A stretch of DNA of 50,143 nt from sequence record OV696612; one strand, written 5' to 3'. This document shows positions 736 through 41,128 of the stretch, one piece after another. Position 1 is the first letter of the stretch; every line of letters starts with the position of its first letter. Under the pieces are notes generated by a model. It was not told the origin of the DNA, ran no database searches, and was given only the letters and a program-made list of their open reading frames with translations. The position numbers and the translations under genes are program-made. This DNA comes from Escherichia phage Perceval.

Positions 736-4416
<3,681 letters not shown>

Positions 4417-18995: not shown

Positions 18996-19595
18996 ATGCG
19001 TAAACTTTATGCCGCCATTTTGTCCGCAGCCATTTGTCTGGCCGTATCCGGTGCGCCTGCATGGGCATCTGAACATCAGTCCACGCTGAGCGCGGGGTAT
19101 CTTCATGCCTCGACGAACGTTCCCGGCAGCGATGATCTTAACGGGATTAACGTGAAATACCGTTATGAGTTTACGGACACACTGGGGCTGGTGACGTCAT
19201 TCAGCTATGCAGGAGACAAGAATCGCCAGCTTACCCGTTACAGCGATACCCGCTGGCATGAAGATTCCGTGCGTAACCGCTGGTTCAGCGTGATGGTGGG
19301 GCCGTCTGTGCGCGTGAATGAATGGTTCAGCGCGTATGCGATGGCGGGTATGGCTTACAGCCGTGTGTCGACTTTCTCCGGGGATTATCTCCGCGTAACT
19401 GACAACAAGGGGAAAACGCACGACGTGCTGACCGGAAGTGATGACGGTCGCCACAGCAACACGTCTCTGGCGTGGGGAGCTGGCGTGCAGTTTAACCCGA
19501 CCGAATCCGTGGCCATTGATATTGCTTATGAAGGCTCCGGCAGTGGCGACTGGCGCACTGACGGTTTCATCGTGGGTGTCGGTTATAAGTTCTGA
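18996..19595 (+). CDS. lom: outer membrane protein Lom (Ail/OmpX family)
   Basis: 199 aa with signal peptide [24 protein letters not shown] and beta-barrel sequence ending GYKF; matches lambda Lom. Confidence 0.9.
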
Positions 19596-22392: not shown

Positions 22393-23250
22393 CTAATTGG
22401 GTGATAACAGATCCTGTGTATGGGAGTTTCCCTTTTTGCGTGCGTTGATGCTGGTAACGGCAAACGTCATGATGAACAAAACCGCGAATAAGACGACAAT
22501 CGTCGGAGCTGGTGCGCTGTCGATAAAAAAGGACAACCAGACACCAGTCATTGACACTATTACCGATATGCCAGTCGCCAGTAGGAGCGCAATATGAAAG
22601 CGTTGTGTCAGGAGTACCGCAATGGCGCCAGGCGCAATGAGCAGAGAAATGGAGAGAATGATACCTACCGCTTTCAGCGTCGCCACAATGGTCAGAGAGA
22701 CCATGCACAGCAGCCCATAATGCAGCCATCTCGTATGCAAACCGCTTACCTGCGCCTGTTGATAATCAAAGCTGAACAGCAAAAAATCCCGCCATTTTAC
22801 GCTAATAACAAGTGTAACCAGCCCGGCAATAATCATCGTCTGGATTATATCGCCGATGGTTATCCCGAGCATGTCGCCGAAAAGAATATGGTCAAGATGT
22901 ACGTCTGGTTTGACTGCAATATACAAGATCAGACCTGCGGCAAACATGCCAGAAAAAACAATCCCCATCACTGTATCTTGCTTGATTCGGCTGTTGTCTT
23001 TCAGGTATCCCGTCGCCACCGCGCAGAATACTCCGGCGACGAATGCCCCTGTAGCCAAAGGTAACCCCAGAATCCAGGCAAGCACGATGCCAGGAAAAAC
23101 CGCATGACTCATCGCGTCACCCATCAGTGCCCAACCTTTCAGGACCAGAAAGACCGACAGCAGCGCACAGGGTATGGAAACTACCAGTGAAATCAGCAGT
23201 GCGTGACTCATAAAGGTGAACTGCAGTGGCTCCAGTAATAATGCCATCAT
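22393..23250 (-). CDS. sitD: Mn/Fe ABC transporter permease SitD
   Basis: 285 aa polytopic membrane protein of the ABC-3 permease family; last gene of a four-gene operon with overlapping stop/start junctions. Confidence 0.85.
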   Translation of the reverse strand: MMALLLEPLQFTFMSHALLISLVVSIPCALLSVFLVLKGWALMGDAMSHAVFPGIVLAWILGLPLATGAFVAGVFCAVATGYLKDNSRIKQDTVMGIVFSGMFAAGLILYIAVKPDVHLDHILFGDMLGITIGDIIQTMIIAGLVTLVISVKWRDFLLFSFDYQQAQVSGLHTRWLHYGLLCMVSLTIVATLKAVGIILSISLLIAPGAIAVLLTQRFHIALLLATGISVIVSMTGVWLSFFIDSAPAPTIVVLFAVLFIMTFAVTSINARKKGNSHTQDLLSPN

Positions 23251-24104
23251 GAGCGATCCTCCAGCGCCTTATGCGCACGCCGACGATTTGCCAAAAGCCC
23301 ATGGGTGGGCGCAAAGACAAATGCTAAAAGAAACAGCAGTGTCTGCGCCACCACGATGATTCCACCTGTCGCGCCGTCCAGAAAGTAACTGACCCACGCG
23401 CCGAGGAAACTGGTTACACTGCCAATAGTTACAGCAATCATGAGCAGGCGGGGAAAACGATCGGTTAACAACCATGCTGTTGCACCGGGAGTCACCACCA
23501 GACAGATCACCAGAAAGGCACCAACCGTTTGCAGCGCCGCAACGGTCGAAACCGACAGCAGGGTGAAGAAGAGGAGTTTTAATCTGCCCGGATGCAATCC
23601 AATAGCACGGGCGTGATTCTCGTCGAAAAAGGTCACCATAAGATCTTTCCATTTGAAAAAAAGCACGATGATCGAGAGAATGCCAATGATAGTGAGTTGC
23701 AGGATATCCGCCGGATCGATTGCCAGAATATTGCCCAGGACGATGGTCTGAATGTTCACAGATGTCGGGTTCAATGACACCATAAACAGCCCCAGGCCAA
23801 AAAAGGACGAGAAGATCAGACCGATGATGGCATCTTCTTTTAAGCGGGTGCGTTGGTTAAGAAACAGCATGCTGCCCGCAGCCAGTCCGCCGGAAAAGAA
23901 GGCTCCCAGAGAAAACGGAAGCCCCAGCATATATGCCCCCGCAACACCCGGGACAATAGAGTGCGACAACGCATCGCCAATCAGCGACCAGCCTTTTAGC
24001 ATCAGATAGCATGACAGGAAAGCGCAGAGACCGCCGACCATCGCCGAGACCCACATCGCATTGAGCATATATTCATAGCTGAAGGGTTCCAGTAGCACGT
24101 TCAT
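23247..24104 (-). CDS. sitC: Mn/Fe ABC transporter permease SitC
   Basis: 285 aa ABC-3 family permease; start overlaps sitB stop. Confidence 0.85.
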
Positions 24105-24928
24105 CTTTCTTCCCTCTGCACCGCTGACGGTCGATGAGCCACAAAAGGGCGTTCATCGTCAGTAATAATGCTTTCTTCCGAGCCGTTAAGTGTGACATGG
24201 CGCAGTACGCCGCTAAAAGCCAGCTCTAGGTTCTCGGCTGTAAAAGTGGTGTCTGTCGGCCCGCTTGCTAGGACGGTGCCTTTGACCATGACCGTATAAT
24301 CGCAAAATGTCGTGACGGATCCGAGATTGTGTGTTGAGACAAGCATCGTTTTGCCTTCCGCGCGTAACTCCCTCAACAGGCTGATGATTTTGGCTTCGGT
24401 TTTCACATCAACGCCAGTAAAAGGTTCATCCAGCAGGATCACATCACCCTGCTGTGCAATCGCTCTCGCCAGAAAGACGCGTTTCTTTTGTCCACCGGAA
24501 AGCTCGCCGATTTGTCGATGGCGAAAATTCACCATATCGACACGTTCCAGCGCATCGGTGACAATTTGACGATCCCTCTTTTTGGCGATACGCAACATAC
24601 CCATATGCCCATAGCGGCCCATCATCACCACATCTTCCACCAGTACAGGAAATGACCAGTCAACATCTTCTGACTGAGGGACGTAGGCAACCAGGTTTTT
24701 CTGTAACGCCTGTCGCGTGGGAATACCCAGAACAGATATCTTTCCGCTGGTCAGACGCACAAATCCCATAATCGCTTTAAACAACGTCGATTTTCCGGAA
24801 CCGTTTACCCCAACCAGAGCGGCAATAGATCCACTTGGTACTGTGAAGGATGCATCGCGCAGTGCTGTGTGCCCGTTACGCCAGGTGACAGTAACATCAT
24901 TAACGACAATGCCTGCAGATTGCATCAT
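24101..24928 (-). CDS. sitB: Mn/Fe ABC transporter ATP-binding protein SitB
   Basis: 275 aa; Walker [13 protein letters not shown] signature LSGGQKKR, Walker [12 protein letters not shown]. Confidence 0.9.
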
Positions 24929-33308: not shown

Positions 33309-33815
33309 TCATTTTAATCTATCAAGGAGTGACTCTCTTTCCTTCTTCTCTGATTCTCTTCGGTTTAATAACGCTTTAAACTCTTGAAGCTCAACCATTA
33401 TTTTATGAACGAATACACTGGTATAGAGAGAAATAAAGAGTAATCCACCTGAAATTTTTAAGACCCTGAAGAGTAGGGCTTGATCATTTGTGCTTGCTAT
33501 TAACCCCAAGATTACAAACAAAGTTGAAAATACATAGAAAGCTAATAATAAAACCAATTTCAGTCTCTTGGATTTGACTATTGGCACTAATCGCCTAACC
33601 TCACTAGGGGTTAAAGACGAGTGGTCATTGGCCTCATTTGCCTTAAAAATGGCTTGTATACAATATGATAATGGCAATTGCATGAGTCCAACCACAGCCC
33701 ACGGAGCAGTTAGGACAACACCCGGTGTAATATAGCCCAATGCTGACTTGAACAAAAAGTAACCAGCAAAATAGAAGACCAACATACCAATAAGGTGGAT
33801 GATGTTCGATTTCAT
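33309..33815 (-). CDS. four-helix membrane protein in the rexB position (candidate exclusion/abortive-infection component)
   Basis: 168 aa; four predicted TM helices then a charged C-terminal tail; strong RBS GGAGG; AT-rich; second gene of a two-gene cassette directly downstream of cI. Confidence 0.7.
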   Translation of the reverse strand: MKSNIIHLIGMLVFYFAGYFLFKSALGYITPGVVLTAPWAVVGLMQLPLSYCIQAIFKANEANDHSSLTPSEVRRLVPIVKSKRLKLVLLLAFYVFSTLFVILGLIASTNDQALLFRVLKISGGLLFISLYTSVFVHKIMVELQEFKALLNRRESEKKERESLLDRLK

Positions 33816-33836: not shown

Positions 33837-34859
33837 TTATTTTGCAACCAATTCTCCGGCATCAAGTTTTGAGAACAGCCACTTATGCATTTTTAAGAAT
33901 AAATCATTTTCATCAATAATGCCATTGTTATATTCAACGCTAATTTTTCCGGATAATTTTATCTCTTTTCCCGTTATTTCCCCACCGCCTTGAAGTTTGA
34001 TGCTAATATCATCCTCATCTAGATGTCGTAGTGAGGTAGCAATACTGTCTATAACAGCTTGACCGCTATCATTTGTTTTTCTGAAGTATGTAATCTCGAG
34101 GCTTACTTGTAAATTGGCCTCATCTAATGAATCTTTAATGTTTATATCATTTGCCCAGTTATCGCCAAAAAATGCTTTTAGTAGCGCACCTCCTTTCCCT
34201 ATTGGGCGGTATTTTATTGTCTTCACCGAACCATTTGAAAAGGAGGGTGTTTGGTTCTCTGAATTTTTAACTTCTGAAGTAATGGGTAATCCACCAATTT
34301 TTATGCTCTTGGCTGGTGCTTTCTCCATTTTTTTCATCGTTTCTTCGGATGGCTTATCTTGAAGCATTAACACAGATTCTTTTTCATCTGTGAATGTATT
34401 AATTAGCCAATTCAAATGCGCCTCAAGCTCCCTTGCTCGAAGCGATGTGGATTGAACGATCATGACATGGTTGTTTAGTACACCAAAATATAAAATTGAA
34501 TCTACAAACTCTCTTTTTTTGTCACTACGTTTATCTCCATCAATAATTATATCATTAGACGTGATGGAGTTAATGTCATAAAATTTAACATTATCACTAA
34601 GCTCTAATAGAGACTGGCTTTTGTCTTTTTCAAATAAAACCAGTTGCCCAAAAAGTATAGTTTTGTATGTGTCGCTTTTATTTAAGAAACGATACCCCGA
34701 ATTTTCATCTGAAGGTGTTATTTTTTCTTGTCTACTAAGTACTTTTTCTGCAACGCCGCCCTCACCTATAATACTAAGTAGTATGTTTTGTAATGATGAT
34801 TTGCTGTGTGGGATTACTGCTTTTTTATAATGAACGACTTTTTGTCTGTTATCTTTCAT
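33837..34859 (-). CDS. 340-aa soluble protein in the rexA position (candidate exclusion/abortive-infection component)
   Basis: AT-rich ORF immediately downstream of cI on the same strand, followed 21 bp later by the membrane-protein gene; no recognisable motif. Confidence 0.7.
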   Translation of the reverse strand: MKDNRQKVVHYKKAVIPHSKSSLQNILLSIIGEGGVAEKVLSRQEKITPSDENSGYRFLNKSDTYKTILFGQLVLFEKDKSQSLLELSDNVKFYDINSITSNDIIIDGDKRSDKKREFVDSILYFGVLNNHVMIVQSTSLRARELEAHLNWLINTFTDEKESVLMLQDKPSEETMKKMEKAPAKSIKIGGLPITSEVKNSENQTPSFSNGSVKTIKYRPIGKGGALLKAFFGDNWANDINIKDSLDEANLQVSLEITYFRKTNDSGQAVIDSIATSLRHLDEDDISIKLQGGGEITGKEIKLSGKISVEYNNGIIDENDLFLKMHKWLFSKLDAGELVAK

Positions 34860-36036: not shown

Positions 36037-36582
36037 ATGACTATGCAACCACTTACATACCAACAGACTAGCGGATTTAGCCCGACTGCGGTGATAAATC
36101 GTTCTCAAACAAAACAGGCGCCAGGCCACGAAAAAATCCGTGATGCCGTTCGCGCCTGGTCGGCTGCAGATAATCAGGATGTTGTTGCCGCACTCATTGT
36201 GAATGAGTATCGGGAGCAGGGCGGCGGCACCATCGATTTTCCTGATGATGTCAGCCGTGCACGCCAGAAGCTGTTCCGCTTCCTCGATAACAAATTCGAT
36301 TCTGAAAAATACCGAAATAACGTGCGTGAACTGACCCCGGCAATTCTGGCGGTACTACCGCTGGAATATCGCGGCCACCTGGTTGAGCAGGATAGCTTCA
36401 TGGCTCGGCTGGCTGAAATGGAAAAGGAACTCAGTGAGGCAAAACAGGCTGTCATTCTCAACGCACCACGCCACCAGAAACTGAAGGAGATGAGTGAAGG
36501 CATTGTGTCGATGTTTCGTGTGGACCCGGATCTGGCTGGTCCACTGATGGCGATGGTCACCACCATGCTGGGGGCAATATGA
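36037..36582 (+). CDS. regulatory protein in the cII position (181 aa; not lambda cII)
   Basis: ORF directly after cro and before O; product unrelated to lambda cII by eye. Confidence 0.55.
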   Translation: MTMQPLTYQQTSGFSPTAVINRSQTKQAPGHEKIRDAVRAWSAADNQDVVAALIVNEYREQGGGTIDFPDDVSRARQKLFRFLDNKFDSEKYRNNVRELTPAILAVLPLEYRGHLVEQDSFMARLAEMEKELSEAKQAVILNAPRHQKLKEMSEGIVSMFRVDPDLAGPLMAMVTTMLGAI

Positions 36583-36668
36583 CAGGTTCGGAAATGGCGA
36601 AAGCCGGTCTGCGCGAACAGAACCGACTTTCAGGTGCAAATCGTAACACACTCATTGCGGGAGGAATT

Positions 36669-37598
36669 ATGGCAAACACTGCTGAGATATTCAATTTTCC
36701 AGTGCCGGATGTGGCACAAAAGGAGCCGCGCGTGGCAGATCTCGATGATGGTTATACGCGCATTGCAAATGAGTTGCTGGAAGCTGTGATGCTGGCCGGA
36801 TTAACACAGCACCAGCTTCTGGTCTTCCTGGCTGTCATGCGCAAAACATATGGCTTTAATAAAAAACTGGATTGGGTGAGCAACGAGCAACTTTCCGAGT
36901 TGACCGGGATATTGCCGCACAAGTGTTCTGCTGCAAAAAGTGTTCTGGTAAAGCGTGGGATTTTTATTCAGAGCGGGCGGAATATCGGCATTAATAATGT
37001 GGTCAGTGAATGGTCAACATTACCCGAATCAGGTAAGAAAAATAAAGTTTACCTGAAAGAGGTAAATTTACCTGAATCAGGTAAGAAAAGTTTACCCAAA
37101 TCAGGTAAAGGCGTTTACCCGAATCAGGTAAACACAAAAGACAAACTAACAAAAGACAATATAAAACCTTTTTCGTCCGAGAATTCTGACGAATCCTCTG
37201 ACCAGCCAGAAAACGATCTTCCTGTGGTGAAACCGGATGCTGCAATTCAGAGCGGCAGCAAGTGGGGGACAGCAGAAGACCTGACCGCCGCAGAGTGGAT
37301 GTTTGACATGGTGAAGACCATCGCGCCATCAGCCAGAAAACCAAATTTTGCAGGGTGGGCTAACGATATCCGCCTGATGCGTGAACGTGACGGACGTAAC
37401 CACCGCGACATGTGCGTGCTGTTCCGCTGGGCATGCCAGGACAACTTCTGGTCCGGTAACGTGCTGAGTCCGGCCAAACTCCGCGACAAGTGGACTCAAC
37501 TCGAAATCAACCGTAACAAGCAACAGGCTGGCGTGACAGCCGGAAAATCAAAACTCGACCTGACAAACACTGACTGGATTTACGGGGTGGATTTATGA
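36669..37598 (+). CDS. O: replication initiator O (non-lambda iteron-binding N-terminal domain, lambda-like C-terminal domain)
   Basis: ATG at 36669 after GGGAGG; ...VADLDDGY...RKTYGFNK... conserved O N-domain motifs; C-terminus ...DNFWSGNVLSPAKLRDKWTQLEINRNKQQ...KLDLTNTDWIYGVDL matches lambda O; contains ori iterons. Confidence 0.88.
   Translation: MANTAEIFNFPVPDVAQKEPRVADLDDGYTRIANELLEAVMLAGLTQHQLLVFLAVMRKTYGFNKKLDWVSNEQLSELTGILPHKCSAAKSVLVKRGIFIQSGRNIGINNVVSEWSTLPESGKKNKVYLKEVNLPESGKKSLPKSGKGVYPNQVNTKDKLTKDNIKPFSSENSDESSDQPENDLPVVKPDAAIQSGSKWGTAEDLTAAEWMFDMVKTIAPSARKPNFAGWANDIRLMRERDGRNHRDMCVLFRWACQDNFWSGNVLSPAKLRDKWTQLEINRNKQQAGVTAGKSKLDLTNTDWIYGVDL
37020..37180 (+). repeat. ori: origin of replication: 4-5 direct iterons (TTTACCCGAATCAGGTAAG type) plus AT-rich tract, inside O
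   Basis: Iterons at 37020-37037, 37048-37066 (degenerate), 37068-37086, 37091-37110, 37114-37132, followed by ACACAAAAGACAAACTAACAAAAGACAATATAAAACC. Confidence 0.8.
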
Positions 37599-38296
37599 AA
37601 AACATCGCCGCACAGATGGTTAACTTTGACCGTGAGCAGATGCGCCGGATCGCCAACAACATGCCGGAACAGTACGACGAAAAGCCGCAGGTACAGCAGG
37701 TAGCGCAGATCATCAACGGTGTGTTCAGCCAGTTACTGGCAACTTTCCCGGCGAGTCTGGCTAACCGTGACCAGAACGAACTGAATGAAATCCGCCGCCA
37801 GTGGGTTCTGGCTTTCCGGGAAAACGGGATCACCACAATGGAACAGGTTAACGCAGGAATGCGCGTAGCCCGTCGGCAGAATCGACCATTTCTGCCATCA
37901 CCCGGGCAGTTTGTTGCATGGTGCCGGGAAGAAGCATCCGTTATCGCCGGACTGCCAAACGTCAGCGAGCTGGTTGATATGGTTTACGAGTATTGCCGGA
38001 AGCGAGGCCTGTATCCGGATGCGGAGTCTTATCCGTGGAAATCAAACGCGCACTACTGGCTGGTTACCAACCTGTATCAGAACATGCGGGCCAATGCGCT
38101 TACTGATGCGGAATTACGCCGTAAGGCCGCAGATGAGCTTGTCCATATGACTGCGAGAATTAACCGTGGTGAGGCGATCCCTGAACCAGTAAAACAACTT
38201 CCTGTCATGGGCGGTAGACCTCTAAATCGTGCACAGGCTCTGGCGAAGATCGCAGAAATCAAAGCTAAGTTCGGACTGAAAGGAGCAAGTGTATGA
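37595..38296 (+). CDS. P: replication protein P (DnaB helicase loader)
   Basis: 233 aa, MKNIAAQMVNFDREQMRRIANNMPEQYDEKPQVQQVAQIINGVFSQ..., matches lambda P. Confidence 0.95.
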   Translation: MKNIAAQMVNFDREQMRRIANNMPEQYDEKPQVQQVAQIINGVFSQLLATFPASLANRDQNELNEIRRQWVLAFRENGITTMEQVNAGMRVARRQNRPFLPSPGQFVAWCREEASVIAGLPNVSELVDMVYEYCRKRGLYPDAESYPWKSNAHYWLVTNLYQNMRANALTDAELRRKAADELVHMTARINRGEAIPEPVKQLPVMGGRPLNRAQALAKIAEIKAKFGLKGASV

Positions 38297-38595
38297 CGGG
38301 CAAAGAGGCAATTATTCATTACCTGGGGACGCATAAGAGCTTCTGTGCACAGGACGTTGCCGCGGTAACAGGCGCAACCGTAACCAGCATAAATCAGGCT
38401 GTGGCTAAAATGGCGCGGGCAGGAATCCTGGTCGTTGATGGTAAGGTCTGGCGAACGGTGTATTATCGGTTCGCTACCAGAGAAGAACGGGAAGGAAAGG
38501 TGAGCGCGAATTTGATTTTTAAGGAGTGTCGCCAGAGTGCCGCGATGAAACGGGTATTGAGGGTATATAAAAGAACATCAATGGGTACACAATGA
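38293..38595 (+). CDS. ren: Ren protein
   Basis: 100 aa, MTGKEAIIHYLGTHKSFCAQDVAAVTGATVTSINQAVAKMARAGILVVDGKVWRTVYYRF..., matches lambda Ren. Confidence 0.88.
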   Translation: MTGKEAIIHYLGTHKSFCAQDVAAVTGATVTSINQAVAKMARAGILVVDGKVWRTVYYRFATREEREGKVSANLIFKECRQSAAMKRVLRVYKRTSMGTQ

Positions 38596-38662
38596 TGAAA
38601 CAGGTGAGTTGAGTTCAAACTGTAGTACAATTCTCTCCAGTTTGAACAGGAAAGAATATGCT

Positions 38663-38995
38663 ATGAACCCTTATATTTATCTTGGTGGTGCAATACTTGC
38701 AGAGGTCATTGGTACAACCTTAATGAAGTTTTCAGAAGGTTTTACACGGTTATGGCCATCTGTTGGTACAATTATTTGTTATTGTGCATCATTCTGGTTA
38801 TTAGCTCAGACGCTGGCTTATATACCTACAGGGATTGCTTATGCTATCTGGTCAGGAGTCGGTATTGTCCTGATTAGCTTACTATCATGGGGATTTTTCG
38901 GCCAACGGTTGGACCTGCCAGCCATTATAGGCATGATGTTGATTTGTGCCGGTGTGTTGGTTATTAATTTATTGTCACGAAGCACACCACATTAA
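38663..38995 (+). CDS. emrE: small multidrug resistance (SMR) efflux transporter EmrE
   Basis: ATG at 38663; 110 aa MNPYIYLGGAILAEVIGTTLMKFSEGFTRLWPSVGTIICYCASFWLLAQTLAYIPTGIAYAIWSGVGIV... matches E. coli EmrE including catalytic Glu14; same position as emrE in DLP12. Confidence 0.9.
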   Translation: MNPYIYLGGAILAEVIGTTLMKFSEGFTRLWPSVGTIICYCASFWLLAQTLAYIPTGIAYAIWSGVGIVLISLLSWGFFGQRLDLPAIIGMMLICAGVLVINLLSRSTPH

Positions 38996-39250
38996 AAATA
39001 ATTTATTTTTAAACGACTAAAATATGGAGGTTCGTATATTTGTATGGGCCTCGTTTTATGCTTTTTGTTAATGTCTTTAGTTTTTATTCATTCTTTTGAT
39101 CTTTCAAGATCATGGTGTAAGAAAATTGCAATACGATTATTGTTGTATATTCAAGATAATGTGACCTTAATTGTCTTTTTAAATAAAAATTAAACAAAAA
39201 TCATATCTCACCACTAAGGTTTATAAAAGCATACTTTAGCAGGTGTCACC

Positions 39251-40777
39251 ATGAAAAAAGCCATAGCATATATGCGATTTTCATCACCAGGTCAGATGTC
39301 TGGTGATTCATTAAACCGCCAGAGAAGGCTTATTACTGAATGGCTAAAGGTAAATAGTGATTATTACCTTGATACCGTAACGTATGAAGATTTGGGGTTA
39401 AGCGCATTCAATGGAAAGCATGCACAATCAGGAGCTTTTTCGGAATTTTTAGATGCTATAGAACATGGTTACATATTGCCAGGGACTACATTGTTAGTTG
39501 AAAGTCTGGACAGACTTTCAAGAGAAAAAGTCGGTGAAGCGATTGAGCGTCTGAAATTGATTTTGAATCACGGTATTGATGTTATAACTCTTTGCGATAA
39601 TACAGTCTATAATATAGACTCATTGAATGAGCCATATTCATTAATAAAAGCCATACTTATAGCACAAAGGGCAAATGAAGAAAGCGAGATAAAGTCAAGT
39701 CGGGTTAAATTATCATGGAAGAAAAAACGGCAGGATGCACTGGAATCAGGCACGATTATGACGGCGTCTTGTCCGAGATGGCTCTCATTGGATGACAAAA
39801 GAACAGCTTTTATTCCAGACCCCGACAGGGTGAAAACGATTGAGCTAATTTTTAAACTCAGGATGGAAAGGCGATCATTGAATGCAATAGCTAAGTATTT
39901 AAATGATCATGCTGTAAAAAATTTTTCAGGAAAAGAAAGTGCATGGGGGCCTTCTGTAATTGAAAAATTATTAGCGAATAAAGCTCTGATAGGTATATGC
40001 GTACCTTCATATCGTGCAAGAGGGAAAGGGATAAGTGAAATCGCTGGCTATTATCCCAGAGTCATATCAGATGATTTGTTTTACGCTGTACAGGAAATTC
40101 GGTTGGCACCTTTTGGTATTAGCAATAGTAGCAAGAATCCTATGCTAATAAATCTACTTCGAACAGTTATGAAGTGTGAGGCTTGTGGTAATACCATGAT
40201 TGTTCATGCGGTATCTGGACGTTTGCATGGCTATTATGTTTGTCCGATGAGAAGATTACATCGATGTGACAGGCCATCAATAAAAAGAGATTTGGTTGAT
40301 TATAATATCATTAATGAATTGCTTTTTAATTGTAGCAAAATTCAACCAGTTGAAAACAAGAAAGATGCTAATGAAACTTTAGAGTTAAAAATTATTGAGC
40401 TTCAGATGAAAATTAATAATTTAATCGTTGCATTGTCTGTCGCGCCTGAAGTTACCGCTATAGCAGAGAAAATAAGACTATTAGATAAGGAATTACGAAG
40501 GGCTTCGGTATCATTAAAAACTTTGAAGAGTAAAGGGGTGAGTTCACTTGGTGATTTTCATGCTATTGATTTAACCAGTAAAAATGGGCGAGAGCTATGT
40601 CGTACACTTGCCTATAAAATATTCGAAAAAATTATAATTAATACAGATAATAAAACCTGTGATATCTATTTTATGAATGGCATTGTTTTTAAACACTATC
40701 CTTTAATGAAAGTAATATCCGCCCAGCAGGCGATAAGTACTCTTAAATATATGGTTGATGGTGAGGTTTATTTTTGA
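39251..40777 (+). CDS. ybcK: large serine recombinase (YbcK-like)
   Basis: 508 aa; N-terminal resolvase-type catalytic domain (AIAYMRFSSPGQ...SLNRQ, nucleophile Ser in RFSS), C-terminal Cys cluster (CEACGN...C...C) and coiled coil; AT-rich. Confidence 0.8.
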   Translation: MKKAIAYMRFSSPGQMSGDSLNRQRRLITEWLKVNSDYYLDTVTYEDLGLSAFNGKHAQSGAFSEFLDAIEHGYILPGTTLLVESLDRLSREKVGEAIERLKLILNHGIDVITLCDNTVYNIDSLNEPYSLIKAILIAQRANEESEIKSSRVKLSWKKKRQDALESGTIMTASCPRWLSLDDKRTAFIPDPDRVKTIELIFKLRMERRSLNAIAKYLNDHAVKNFSGKESAWGPSVIEKLLANKALIGICVPSYRARGKGISEIAGYYPRVISDDLFYAVQEIRLAPFGISNSSKNPMLINLLRTVMKCEACGNTMIVHAVSGRLHGYYVCPMRRLHRCDRPSIKRDLVDYNIINELLFNCSKIQPVENKKDANETLELKIIELQMKINNLIVALSVAPEVTAIAEKIRLLDKELRRASVSLKTLKSKGVSSLGDFHAIDLTSKNGRELCRTLAYKIFEKIIINTDNKTCDIYFMNGIVFKHYPLMKVISAQQAISTLKYMVDGEVYF

Positions 40778-41101
40778 GTAATAATCACTTTTTCAACCGT
40801 GCTATGGTATGAAAGTAAAGTAACTAATATGATATTAACTATCTTGAACGAAGCGCCCTGAGCTATAGTTTTACTATAGGCACTGTCACTGGATGTTGGC
40901 ATTCTTGCTCTAGTAGCTCAACAATACCCAATCACAAAACAATTCACTGATAACAAACTTTGTGCACGTGCTTGGTTATGGCGAACAGGTGATGTTAACC
41001 TCTTGCCAGAATGCCACTCCACTTCATTAAGTATCTGAGCACCGAGAGGCTGGTCACGCCCCCATTAAAAATAATTTCTTTTGAATCGAGTGAAATAGGT
41101 T

Positions 41102-41128
41102 AGCCCGCATAAGTGCGGGCTGCTTTTT
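41102..41128 (+). terminator. rho-independent terminator (plus strand), overlapping the hydrolase gene stop
   Basis: AGCCCGCA-TAAG-TGCGGGCT followed by GCTTTTT. Confidence 0.6.

Follow-up and report, generated by a model that had tools for sequence, protein, structure and literature searches.

EmrE, a proton/drug antiporter of the SMR family, is a dimer of identical four-helix subunits in antiparallel orientation, in which two protons at Glu14 are swapped for one cationic aromatic or quaternary ammonium substrate. Its substrates include methyl viologen, ethidium, acriflavine, TPP+, and quaternary ammonium compounds. In Escherichia coli K-12 the gene (b0543) lies in DLP12, a defective prophage with IS3 in renD and IS5 in nmpC and without replication, head, or tail genes. 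Other SMR genes (qacE, qacEdelta1, qacC/G/H/J) share with emrE the Pfam domain PF00893, proton/cation antiport, and a mobile vehicle; they ride plasmids and integrons, whereas the emrE described here rides a temperate phage.

That emrE is carried by lambda-like phages and intact prophages is already known from three papers. EmrE was reported on phages 4A7 and 4C10 by authors who noted its significance, resistance genes being scarce in phages (Mathieu et al. 2020; PMC6969025). It was annotated and discussed in phage Perceval (Misson et al. 2023; PMC9928086), and in the intact prophages of urinary E. coli, where it was present in 47, it outnumbered every other resistance-associated gene (Crum et al. 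2023; PMC10101464). Phages 4A7, Lambda_4C10 (Bievrevirus), 1W, 3W, and PhiR47_2, all isolated as infectious temperate phages, carry a 4.5-kb segment (P-ren-emrE-ylcJ-ybcK-hydrolase-ybcN) that is 100% identical to that of Perceval; they are unlike Perceval in the structural (left) arm and in parts of the early region. Extra genes of this kind, expressed from the prophage and deviant in composition, are known as morons. Examples include bor and lom of lambda, as well as the PD-lambda-1 gene and the acyltransferase and lipoprotein genes that related phages carry in the slot described below. Those genes provide serum resistance, adhesion, or phage defence, whereas the cargo of Perceval is an efflux pump. 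New in the present analysis are the purifying selection on emrE, the conservation of its leader, the exact edges of the slot, and a map of its modular cargo.

A Complete Phage with an Intact emrE

The window analysed here is the whole 50,143-nucleotide sequence of Perceval (OV696612.1), which is prophage 2 of E. coli LF82 and was named by Misson et al. (2023). Its ends are the lambda cos ends: it starts GGGCGGCGACCT and finishes ...CAGGTTACG. Between them the genes follow the lambda order: terminase, head, tail, J, lom, side fibre, sitABCD, int/xis, exo/bet/gam, the repressor region, O, P, ren, the nin region, Q, a porin gene, lysis genes, and bor. The two stretches compared with the LF82 chromosome (1–26733 and 27760–50143) are 100% identical to it, gapless, and the prophage junction in LF82 adjoins icd. 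Perceval scored positive for virome sequencing, qPCR, plaque isolation, and electron microscopy, with lysogenisation entered as n.d. (S3 Table of PMC9928086); plaques, virions seen by electron microscopy, and encapsidated DNA are thus on record. An earlier note on this DNA, made from the letters alone, had called the genome apparently complete, and the cos ends, the full gene order, and the published plaques and virions bear this out. Perceval is demonstrably a complete, infectious lambda-like phage. No single deposited phage record spans it: the best match to the left arm is ev207 (96.9% identity), and the best match to the right arm is 4A7 (75% coverage of the right half of the window, 99% identity).

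The emrE gene occupies positions 38663–38995 on the plus strand (ATG at 38663, TAA at 38993–38995, 110 codons) and is annotated as PERCE_50, “Multidrug transporter EmrE,” at 1183786–1184118 of LF82 (PMC9928086). A Shine-Dalgarno sequence, AGGAAAG (38648–38654), stands 8 nt before the ATG; a TTG further upstream (38609) lengthens the mechanical open reading frame only. The product scores 121.5 bits against Pfam PF00893 (cut-off 23.7) and 240.6 bits against the NCBIfam model NF042984, SMR_efflux_EmrE (cut-off 226), over residues 1–110 of 110. The EmrE structure 3b5d matches it with E = 1e-69 (phmmer), and the solved structures 3b5d, 7jk8, and 7mgx all align over 1–110. With 110 amino acids the protein is within the SMR size range of approximately 105–120, and its profile match is full-length and above the curated threshold. 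The Qac-specific NCBIfam models, by comparison, score it far under every cut-off (e.g., QacE, 87 bits versus 185).

Perceval EmrE is identical to K-12 EmrE at 109 of 110 residues, the sole change being I100V. Among the residues kept are Glu14 in TM1, the membrane-embedded site shared by proton and substrate; Tyr40, Tyr60, and Trp63, the aromatic residues of the substrate site; Gly90 and Gly97, the dimerisation glycines of TM4; and His110 at the C-terminus. The earlier identification of the 110-amino-acid product as EmrE with its essential Glu14 is therefore sound, and the alignment that could have failed in places runs from the first residue to the last. From the 109/110 identity we infer that Perceval EmrE should act like the K-12 protein.

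The surroundings resemble DLP12 as well. The order renD, emrE, ylcJ, ybcK in K-12 matches ren, emrE, ylcJ, ybcK in Perceval, with 96.1% DNA identity over 38382–40816, so the placement of emrE after ren as in DLP12, which the earlier note had claimed, holds at the level of both gene order and alignment. The likeness resumes downstream (95.2% over 42435–44721) and takes in ybcN, ninE, ybcO, rusA, ylcG, quuD, nmpC, and the lysis genes. Perceval is unlike DLP12 in being plaque-forming and complete, with ren and the porin gene intact. The third cargo module differs too: a hydrolase gene in Perceval, ybcL-ybcM (then ylcH and ybcN) in DLP12.

The Cargo Slot between ren and ybcN

The gene order around emrE is O, P, ren, emrE, ylcJ, ybcK, hydrolase (on the minus strand), ybcN. 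O (36579–37598) and P (37595–38296) lie upstream and are followed by ren (38293–38595, plus strand), a conserved phage gene that the LF82 annotation calls “protein ren.” Homology to lambda stops at 38568, 27 nt short of the stop codon of ren. Comparison with lambda, PhiR30_1, PhiR26_1, and D2 places the break within the last ren codons, at 38559–38568. Homology to K-12, PhiR30_1, and PhiR26_1 restarts exactly at 42435, where the plus-strand ylcH/ybcN leader and ybcN follow (42435–43073; ybcN at 42618–43073, NCBIfam PRK09741, 276 bits). PhiR30_1 and PhiR26_1 break at the very same points as Perceval (38559 on the left, 42435 on the right) while carrying other cargo, namely an acyltransferase and a lipoprotein gene in PhiR30_1 and PD-lambda-1 and Rha in PhiR26_1. 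In lambda only 73 bp separate ren (40280–40570) from ninB (which begins at 40644); the slot of Perceval holds 3.9 kb. These common break-points in phages with other cargo, together with the short gap in lambda, argue on sequence grounds that 38569–42434, where the nin region begins, is a hot spot for cargo, with sharp edges and exchangeable contents.

Three coding modules fill the slot. emrE is the first. The second comprises ylcJ (39044–39193, plus strand), which encodes a 49-amino-acid small protein (Pfam PF23688, YlcJ, E = 2e-28) annotated in K-12, and ybcK (39251–40777, plus strand), which encodes a 508-amino-acid large serine recombinase with the Pfam domains Resolvase, Recombinase, and Zn_ribbon_recom; a literature search for YbcK as a recombinase returned nothing. 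Behind ybcK lies what is left of a Rha/P22AR-type antirepressor gene, namely its 3' end (40901–41054, plus strand), which has 77% identity to the PhiR26_1 Rha region. RefSeq annotates a “P22AR C-terminal domain” there in other strains, and in one viral locus (L009) the remnant runs on as an open reading frame. The third module is an alpha/beta hydrolase gene on the minus strand (41127–42170), of the BD-FAE/hormone-sensitive-lipase type (Pfam PF20434, E = 5.5e-45), with a GDSAG motif at residue 162 and a signal-like N-terminal sequence. It is transcribed in the lysogen (PMC9928086) and counts as the second moron of the ren-ybcN slot. A pattern scan finds a G+C-rich hairpin terminator at 41101–41122, between the plus-strand genes and the convergent hydrolase gene. 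PADLOC returned no matches for the genes of the cassette or of the rex slot, and a defence-system role for either set was rejected on that result.

The G+C content is 0.30–0.39 over 38600–40850 (emrE-ylcJ-ybcK), compared with 0.49–0.57 in P and ren and 0.50–0.53 from ybcN on. emrE thus has the marks by which morons are recognized: it sits between genes that are adjacent in relatives, it deviates in base composition, and published RNA-seq records its transcription in the lysogen. As part of the explanation that we favor, emrE is very probably a moron, i.e., cargo dispensable to the phage cycle, in the ren-to-ybcN slot.

A Conserved Leader Upstream of emrE

LF82 has a second emrE, located between fliE and yedK in a prophage remnant that keeps only emrE, ybcL, ybcM, and a porin gene. 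The homology between this allele and the emrE of Perceval or K-12 extends from approximately 75 nt before the ATG to a few nucleotides past the stop codon. Within it, the 60 nt directly upstream of the gene (38603–38662, plus strand) form a conserved leader that contains a candidate promoter, a 10-bp inverted repeat, and the Shine-Dalgarno sequence. The two LF82 alleles differ at 2 of the 60 leader positions, compared with 24 of 80.5 synonymous sites (30%) in the gene (binomial P = 2e-7).

The candidate promoter consists of a -35 element GTGAGT (38604–38609), a 16-nt spacer, and a -10 element TACAAT (38626–38631), with 8 of 12 matches. The pattern scan found no sigma-70 promoter with at least 9 of 12 matches upstream of emrE, and a strong sigma-70 promoter was rejected on that basis. 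The inverted repeat (38613–38622/38638–38647) is perfect, and the candidate -10 element falls in its loop. As an RNA structure the hairpin is unsupported: the minimum free energy of 38590–38680 is no better than that of shuffled sequences (z = -0.28), the minimum-energy fold does without the 10-bp repeat, and one arm is changed without compensation in the second allele. Known RNA elements ahead of emrE, riboswitches among them, were likewise rejected, as an Rfam scan of 38200–39400 gave no match at E ≤ 1. In a paraquat-evolved K-12 line, a 9-bp insertion arose 39 bp upstream of emrE; it gave no transcriptional signal, and its authors proposed a translational effect. The insertion falls in the loop of the inverted repeat and speaks neither for nor against the candidate promoter.

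At the other end of the gene, a terminator-like hairpin followed by GTTTTATGCT (39027–39052, plus strand; pattern scan only) overlaps the start of ylcJ and is a candidate 3' end for the emrE transcript.

Expression in the Lysogen

RNA-seq values for the LF82 lysogen are given as log2(fpkm+5), with a floor of 2.32, in the S1 and S4 Tables of PMC9928086. emrE stands at 4.4–4.5 in LB, 6.1–6.45 in DMEM, 7.4 after 1 h in macrophages, and 5.9–6.25 after 6 h in macrophages. O and P stay at 2.3–3.0 in every condition, and cI ranges from 6.2 to 8.1. The emrE transcript thus rises 4–10 fold in DMEM and macrophages and nears the level of cI; these values are subject to possible cross-assignment of reads, the two LF82 copies of emrE being 92% identical. 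In LB the normalised count is 22.3 for emrE, and the median for the prophage is 7.1. The ratio, 3.1×, lies under the 5× cut-off that the authors applied to morons, which explains why emrE is missing from their Table 1. The transcript of ybcK is lower than that of emrE in the lysogen (PMC9928086).

The earlier note had named lack of expression as a finding that would speak against it; the published data show an emrE transcript in the lysogen with O and P at the floor. Since emrE RNA is present while O and P are not raised, the prophage transcribes emrE autonomously, with a basal level that is low and an increase in host-like conditions. Part of this transcription may begin further upstream, as ren RNA also increases in DMEM and macrophages (maximum 5.8; PMC9928086). 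The copy at the fliE locus follows the same trend (LB < DMEM < macrophage), and fliE itself, upstream, is silent there (PMC9928086). Taken together with the conservation of the leader, this shared trend suggests that promoter and translation signals travel with the leader, and the emrE promoter probably lies within its 60 nt. A weak candidate promoter is consistent with the low basal expression.

Distribution and Purifying Selection

We find emrE in 3693 of 5426 complete E. coli genomes (68%), at 4162 places and with a maximum of three per genome; one of these places is on a plasmid. In 1409 genomes, including K-12 and O157, the copy closest to that of Perceval shares at least 95% identity with it; in 2283 it shares 90–95%, as at the fliE locus of LF82. 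The full Perceval-type 4.5-kb segment is present in 172 E. coli genomes. Among 50,697 deposited phage records, 11, from ten phages, contain emrE; each of these phages is a lambda-like coliphage, and one is the D2 chimera described below. In IMG/VR, 135 viral contigs encode an EmrE that is 99–100% identical.

Between the Perceval and fliE-locus alleles there are 24 synonymous differences and 1 non-synonymous difference (dN/dS 0.011); between Perceval and K-12 there are 3 and 1. In the 80 viral loci retrieved from IMG/VR, 54 EmrE proteins are identical to that of Perceval, and the others have one substitution each. Inactive versions are rare. One of the viral loci, L081, carries E14Q; in phage D2, the so-called “SMR transporter” joins lambda NinB residues 1–31 to EmrE residues 30–110 and has neither TM1 nor Glu14. 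At the fliE locus of LF82, emrE is among the few genes retained on prophage decay. As judged from these alleles, emrE is under strong purifying selection wherever it is located, and since selection maintains it, the view that it is a meaningless passenger is weakened.

What the Prophage Copy Might Do

Our preferred explanation, which we hold with considerable confidence, is that the infectious lambda-like phage Perceval of LF82 carries a functional emrE as a moron in the slot of its nin region. In the lysogen, the EmrE homodimer would trade two protons at Glu14 for each cationic substrate, as in K-12. The published RNA-seq (PMC9928086) shows that the gene is read alone there while the surrounding early genes are repressed. 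During lytic growth it would also be read in the pR early transcript, as its position and strand suggest. On lysogenisation, a host without emrE would gain one copy, and a host that already has it would gain a second copy and thereby dosage. The expected outcome would be a modest rise in tolerance to methyl viologen, ethidium, acriflavine, and quaternary ammonium compounds, “modest” being our estimate of its size. The interpretation in the earlier note, that emrE on an intact phage makes a transducible or lysogenic-conversion route for tolerance plausible, is supported. For this allele or for a lysogen, we found no report in the literature of a change in MIC, transport, or tolerance.

AcrAB-TolC and MdfA overlap EmrE in substrates. 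The gain from lysogeny may be small, since 68% of E. coli carry emrE and other pumps overlap with it. Dosage matters: a 42-fold amplification of emrE was the first change selected under paraquat, and amplification of emrE was also selected under erythromycin. One extra copy at native expression may nevertheless shift tolerance little.

These considerations lead to a rival account, in which emrE is intact and weakly transcribed, lysogeny has no measurable effect on biocides or dyes, and the gene persists mainly by linkage in an often-exchanged nin cassette. The low expression in LB, 3.1× background and under the moron cut-off, fits such a gene. So do the frequency of a resident emrE (3693 of 5426 genomes, with two copies in LF82 itself), the need for 42-fold amplification to obtain strong paraquat tolerance in laboratory selection, and the natural dead versions in D2 and L081. 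The dN/dS of 0.011 and a leader conserved beyond neutral expectation show, however, that selection acts on emrE as well as on its control region. Moreover, emrE was kept at the fliE locus when nearly all phage genes were lost, and its transcript rises 4–10 fold in DMEM and macrophages to near the cI level. We therefore think that mere persistence by linkage is possible but rather doubtful.

It is also conceivable that the prophage EmrE pumps out naturally occurring cations (betaine or choline, or cationic metabolites from the host or the diet) or tunes pH and osmotic balance in the gut or in macrophages, the conserved leader making emrE inducible there. RefSeq names K-12 EmrE a “multidrug/betaine/choline efflux transporter”; the two LF82 copies, whose otherwise unrelated genomic surroundings have in common only the leader of approximately 75 nt, both follow LB < DMEM < macrophage 1 h; and a benefit for intravacuolar life was suggested by the authors of PMC9928086. 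Against this, Rfam gives no match, and the leader RNA shows no significant structure (z = -0.28). In addition, the induction could be a general stress or growth-phase response, and cross-mapping of reads between the two copies could contribute to the common trend. On present evidence we regard such a physiological role with reserve, as a tentative possibility.

It is tempting to go one step further and suppose that emrE is a niche-induced moron and not a constitutive biocide resistance gene. The leader of approximately 60 nt, with its weak promoter in a 10-bp inverted repeat and a conservation approximately ten times better than that of synonymous sites, would then be a portable switch that acts in DMEM and macrophages, and the selected function would be the export of natural cationic metabolites in intracellular or gut life. 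We consider this unlikely as it stands and offer it as a speculation.

Origin of the ylcJ-ybcK Block

The contents of the slot to the right of emrE vary from locus to locus. P and/or ren lie directly upstream of emrE in at least 74 of the 80 IMG/VR loci retrieved. Downstream, emrE-ylcJ-ybcK-ybcN is found in 31 of the 80 and emrE-ylcJ-ybcK-ybcL-ybcM in 16; 12 are of the Perceval type, four have emrE next to the hydrolase gene without ylcJ-ybcK, and one has emrE-ybcL-ybcM. The presence or absence of ybcK is independent of emrE, as the filled and empty arrangements make clear, and ybcK is therefore a separate module; among the complete genomes, ybcK is found in 1688 and emrE in 3693. In relatives without ylcJ-ybcK (the junctions of L084 and L087), the strong G+C-rich hairpin terminator corresponding to 41101–41122 comes directly after emrE. 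In that arrangement emrE and the hydrolase gene are convergent, and the terminator is common to both.

The block is flanked by a 38-nt direct repeat. The left copy (38987–39024, plus strand) comprises the last 9 nt of emrE and its 3' flank and holds an A/T palindrome, TTAAAAATAA-T-TTATTTTTAA (38992–39012). The right copy (41060–41097, plus strand) comes from another emrE-type cassette, whose tail and flank here adjoin the hydrolase module. The two copies are 84% identical (blastn, E = 3e-8). Only this 38-nt tail and flank are repeated: tblastn finds nothing further after ybcK, and a degraded second emrE gene was rejected there.

The repeat could be read as attL and attR of an element of approximately 2.07 kb (ylcJ-ybcK), inserted by the YbcK serine recombinase at the 3' flank of emrE. 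In keeping with such an event, the repeat is significant and contains a palindrome, L084 and L087 have exact empty sites made up of the left half of the left copy and the right half of the right copy, and K-12 has 2,083 bp, as one discrete segment, that the fliE-locus arrangement lacks. The right copy, however, occurs in the 12 Perceval-type loci only and in none of the 60 other ybcK loci, and the K-12 right junction is without the repeat. Furthermore, the last 160 or so nucleotides of the block are the truncated Rha/P22AR gene, which continues in L009-type loci, and a 60%-identical ybcK of Atlantibacter sits in a nin region without an SMR gene. An integrative element with attL and attR was accordingly rejected, the right copy being missing from 60 of 72 ybcK loci, and we judge insertion by YbcK to be most improbable. 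Recombination between two emrE-bearing cassettes accounts for the arrangement more simply and better.

Implications

The practical importance of the phage-borne emrE is small at present: EmrE is a low-level pump, and two thirds of E. coli are already carriers. The selection test, the leader, the edges of the slot, and the map of its cargo, unsurprising as they are, should be useful for annotation and for the design of an experiment on tolerance in lysogens. Antibiotic or biocide resistance genes are rare in real infectious phages, so that each verified case bears on the question of whether phages disseminate resistance. The emrE of Perceval is such a verified case, with an intact gene, an infectious phage, and expression from the prophage.

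Variant and second copies of emrE

In phage D2 (OM475427.1 39199-39537; L008 1108-1446), the gene annotated as "small multidrug resistance efflux transporter" is a chimera, in which EmrE residues 30-110 are joined behind residues 1-31 of lambda NinB. The chimera lacks both TM1 and Glu14, has the lambda tR2 terminator immediately upstream, and is presumably non-functional. The case shows that tallies of phage emrE that rely on annotation can come out too high. One viral contig (IMGVR_UViG_2541047794_000002; L081 4001-4333) has an emrE in which Glu14 is replaced by Gln (GAG to CAG), and this E14Q gene is expected to be a natural transport-dead allele.

E. coli LF82, which carries Perceval as prophage 2, has a second emrE between fliE and yedK (L005, NC_011993.1 1972941-1976384). 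Compared with window 38586-39003, this copy of the gene is 92% identical at the nucleotide level and differs by one amino acid. The site is a stripped remnant in which nothing is left other than emrE, ybcL, ybcM and an nmpC-like porin gene, so that a DLP12-like prophage is represented here by its morons alone. Among 5426 complete E. coli genomes, 2283 have a best emrE copy that, like this one, shares 90-95% identity with that of the window.

A 38-nt direct repeat, consisting of the emrE tail and its flank, lies on both sides of ylcJ-ybcK and a Rha/P22AR gene remnant (copy L, 38987-39024; copy R, 41060-41097). Exact empty-site relatives occur among the viral emrE loci (L084 and L087), and in locus L009 the Rha/P22AR remnant continues as an ORF. 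Recombination between two emrE cassettes is a more likely origin of the arrangement than a YbcK integrative element flanked by attL and attR, a model that was tested and is unsupported, with copy R missing in 60 of the 72 ybcK loci.

Other cargo and its expression in the lysogen

The slot occupied by emrE is shared by a second moron, an alpha/beta hydrolase of the BD-FAE/hormone-sensitive-lipase type with a GDSAG motif (41127-42170, minus strand). Its N-terminus is a signal-like sequence ending in VGSC, and its RNA is present in the lysogen, with a peak at 1 h in DMEM (log2 6.9-7.2; PMC9928086). Perceval further carries, on the minus strand, sitABCD for iron/manganese uptake (22393-25842), an nmpC/ompC-like porin gene (44680-45762) and bor/iss (48280-48621), and, on the plus strand, lom (18996-19595) and a TonB C-terminal fragment (49000-49380). 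The porin gene is intact, whereas its counterpart in DLP12 of K-12 is broken by IS5.

Immediately downstream of the cI-like repressor, ORFs of 168 amino acids (33309-33815) and 340 amino acids (33837-34859), both on the minus strand, lie where lambda has rexA/rexB. No Pfam or PADLOC match was obtained for either ORF, and the two are a candidate exclusion or defence pair. By locus-tag numbering, the 168-aa ORF is probably LF82_152, a "transmembrane protein" whose published level in the lysogen is 81 times the prophage background.

RNA of the antiterminator gene Q/quuD (44093-44491, plus strand; LF82 1189231-1189614) reaches log2 6.1-10.8 in the lysogen, at least the level of cI, with its maximum in macrophages; lysis and structural genes downstream are near the floor in the same data (PMC9928086). 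The high Q signal may come from a small RNA, from an antisense transcript or from transcription that runs through out of the adjacent porin region.

YbcK in another nin region

Atlantibacter sp. RC6 has a 60% identical YbcK homologue (L091 2956-4530) within another lambdoid nin region, adjoining a large DNA cytosine methyltransferase. We found no literature on YbcK-type recombinases as nin-region cargo. Since the Atlantibacter homologue has no SMR gene close by, YbcK-type large serine recombinases appear to be recurrent nin-region cargo that stands alone.
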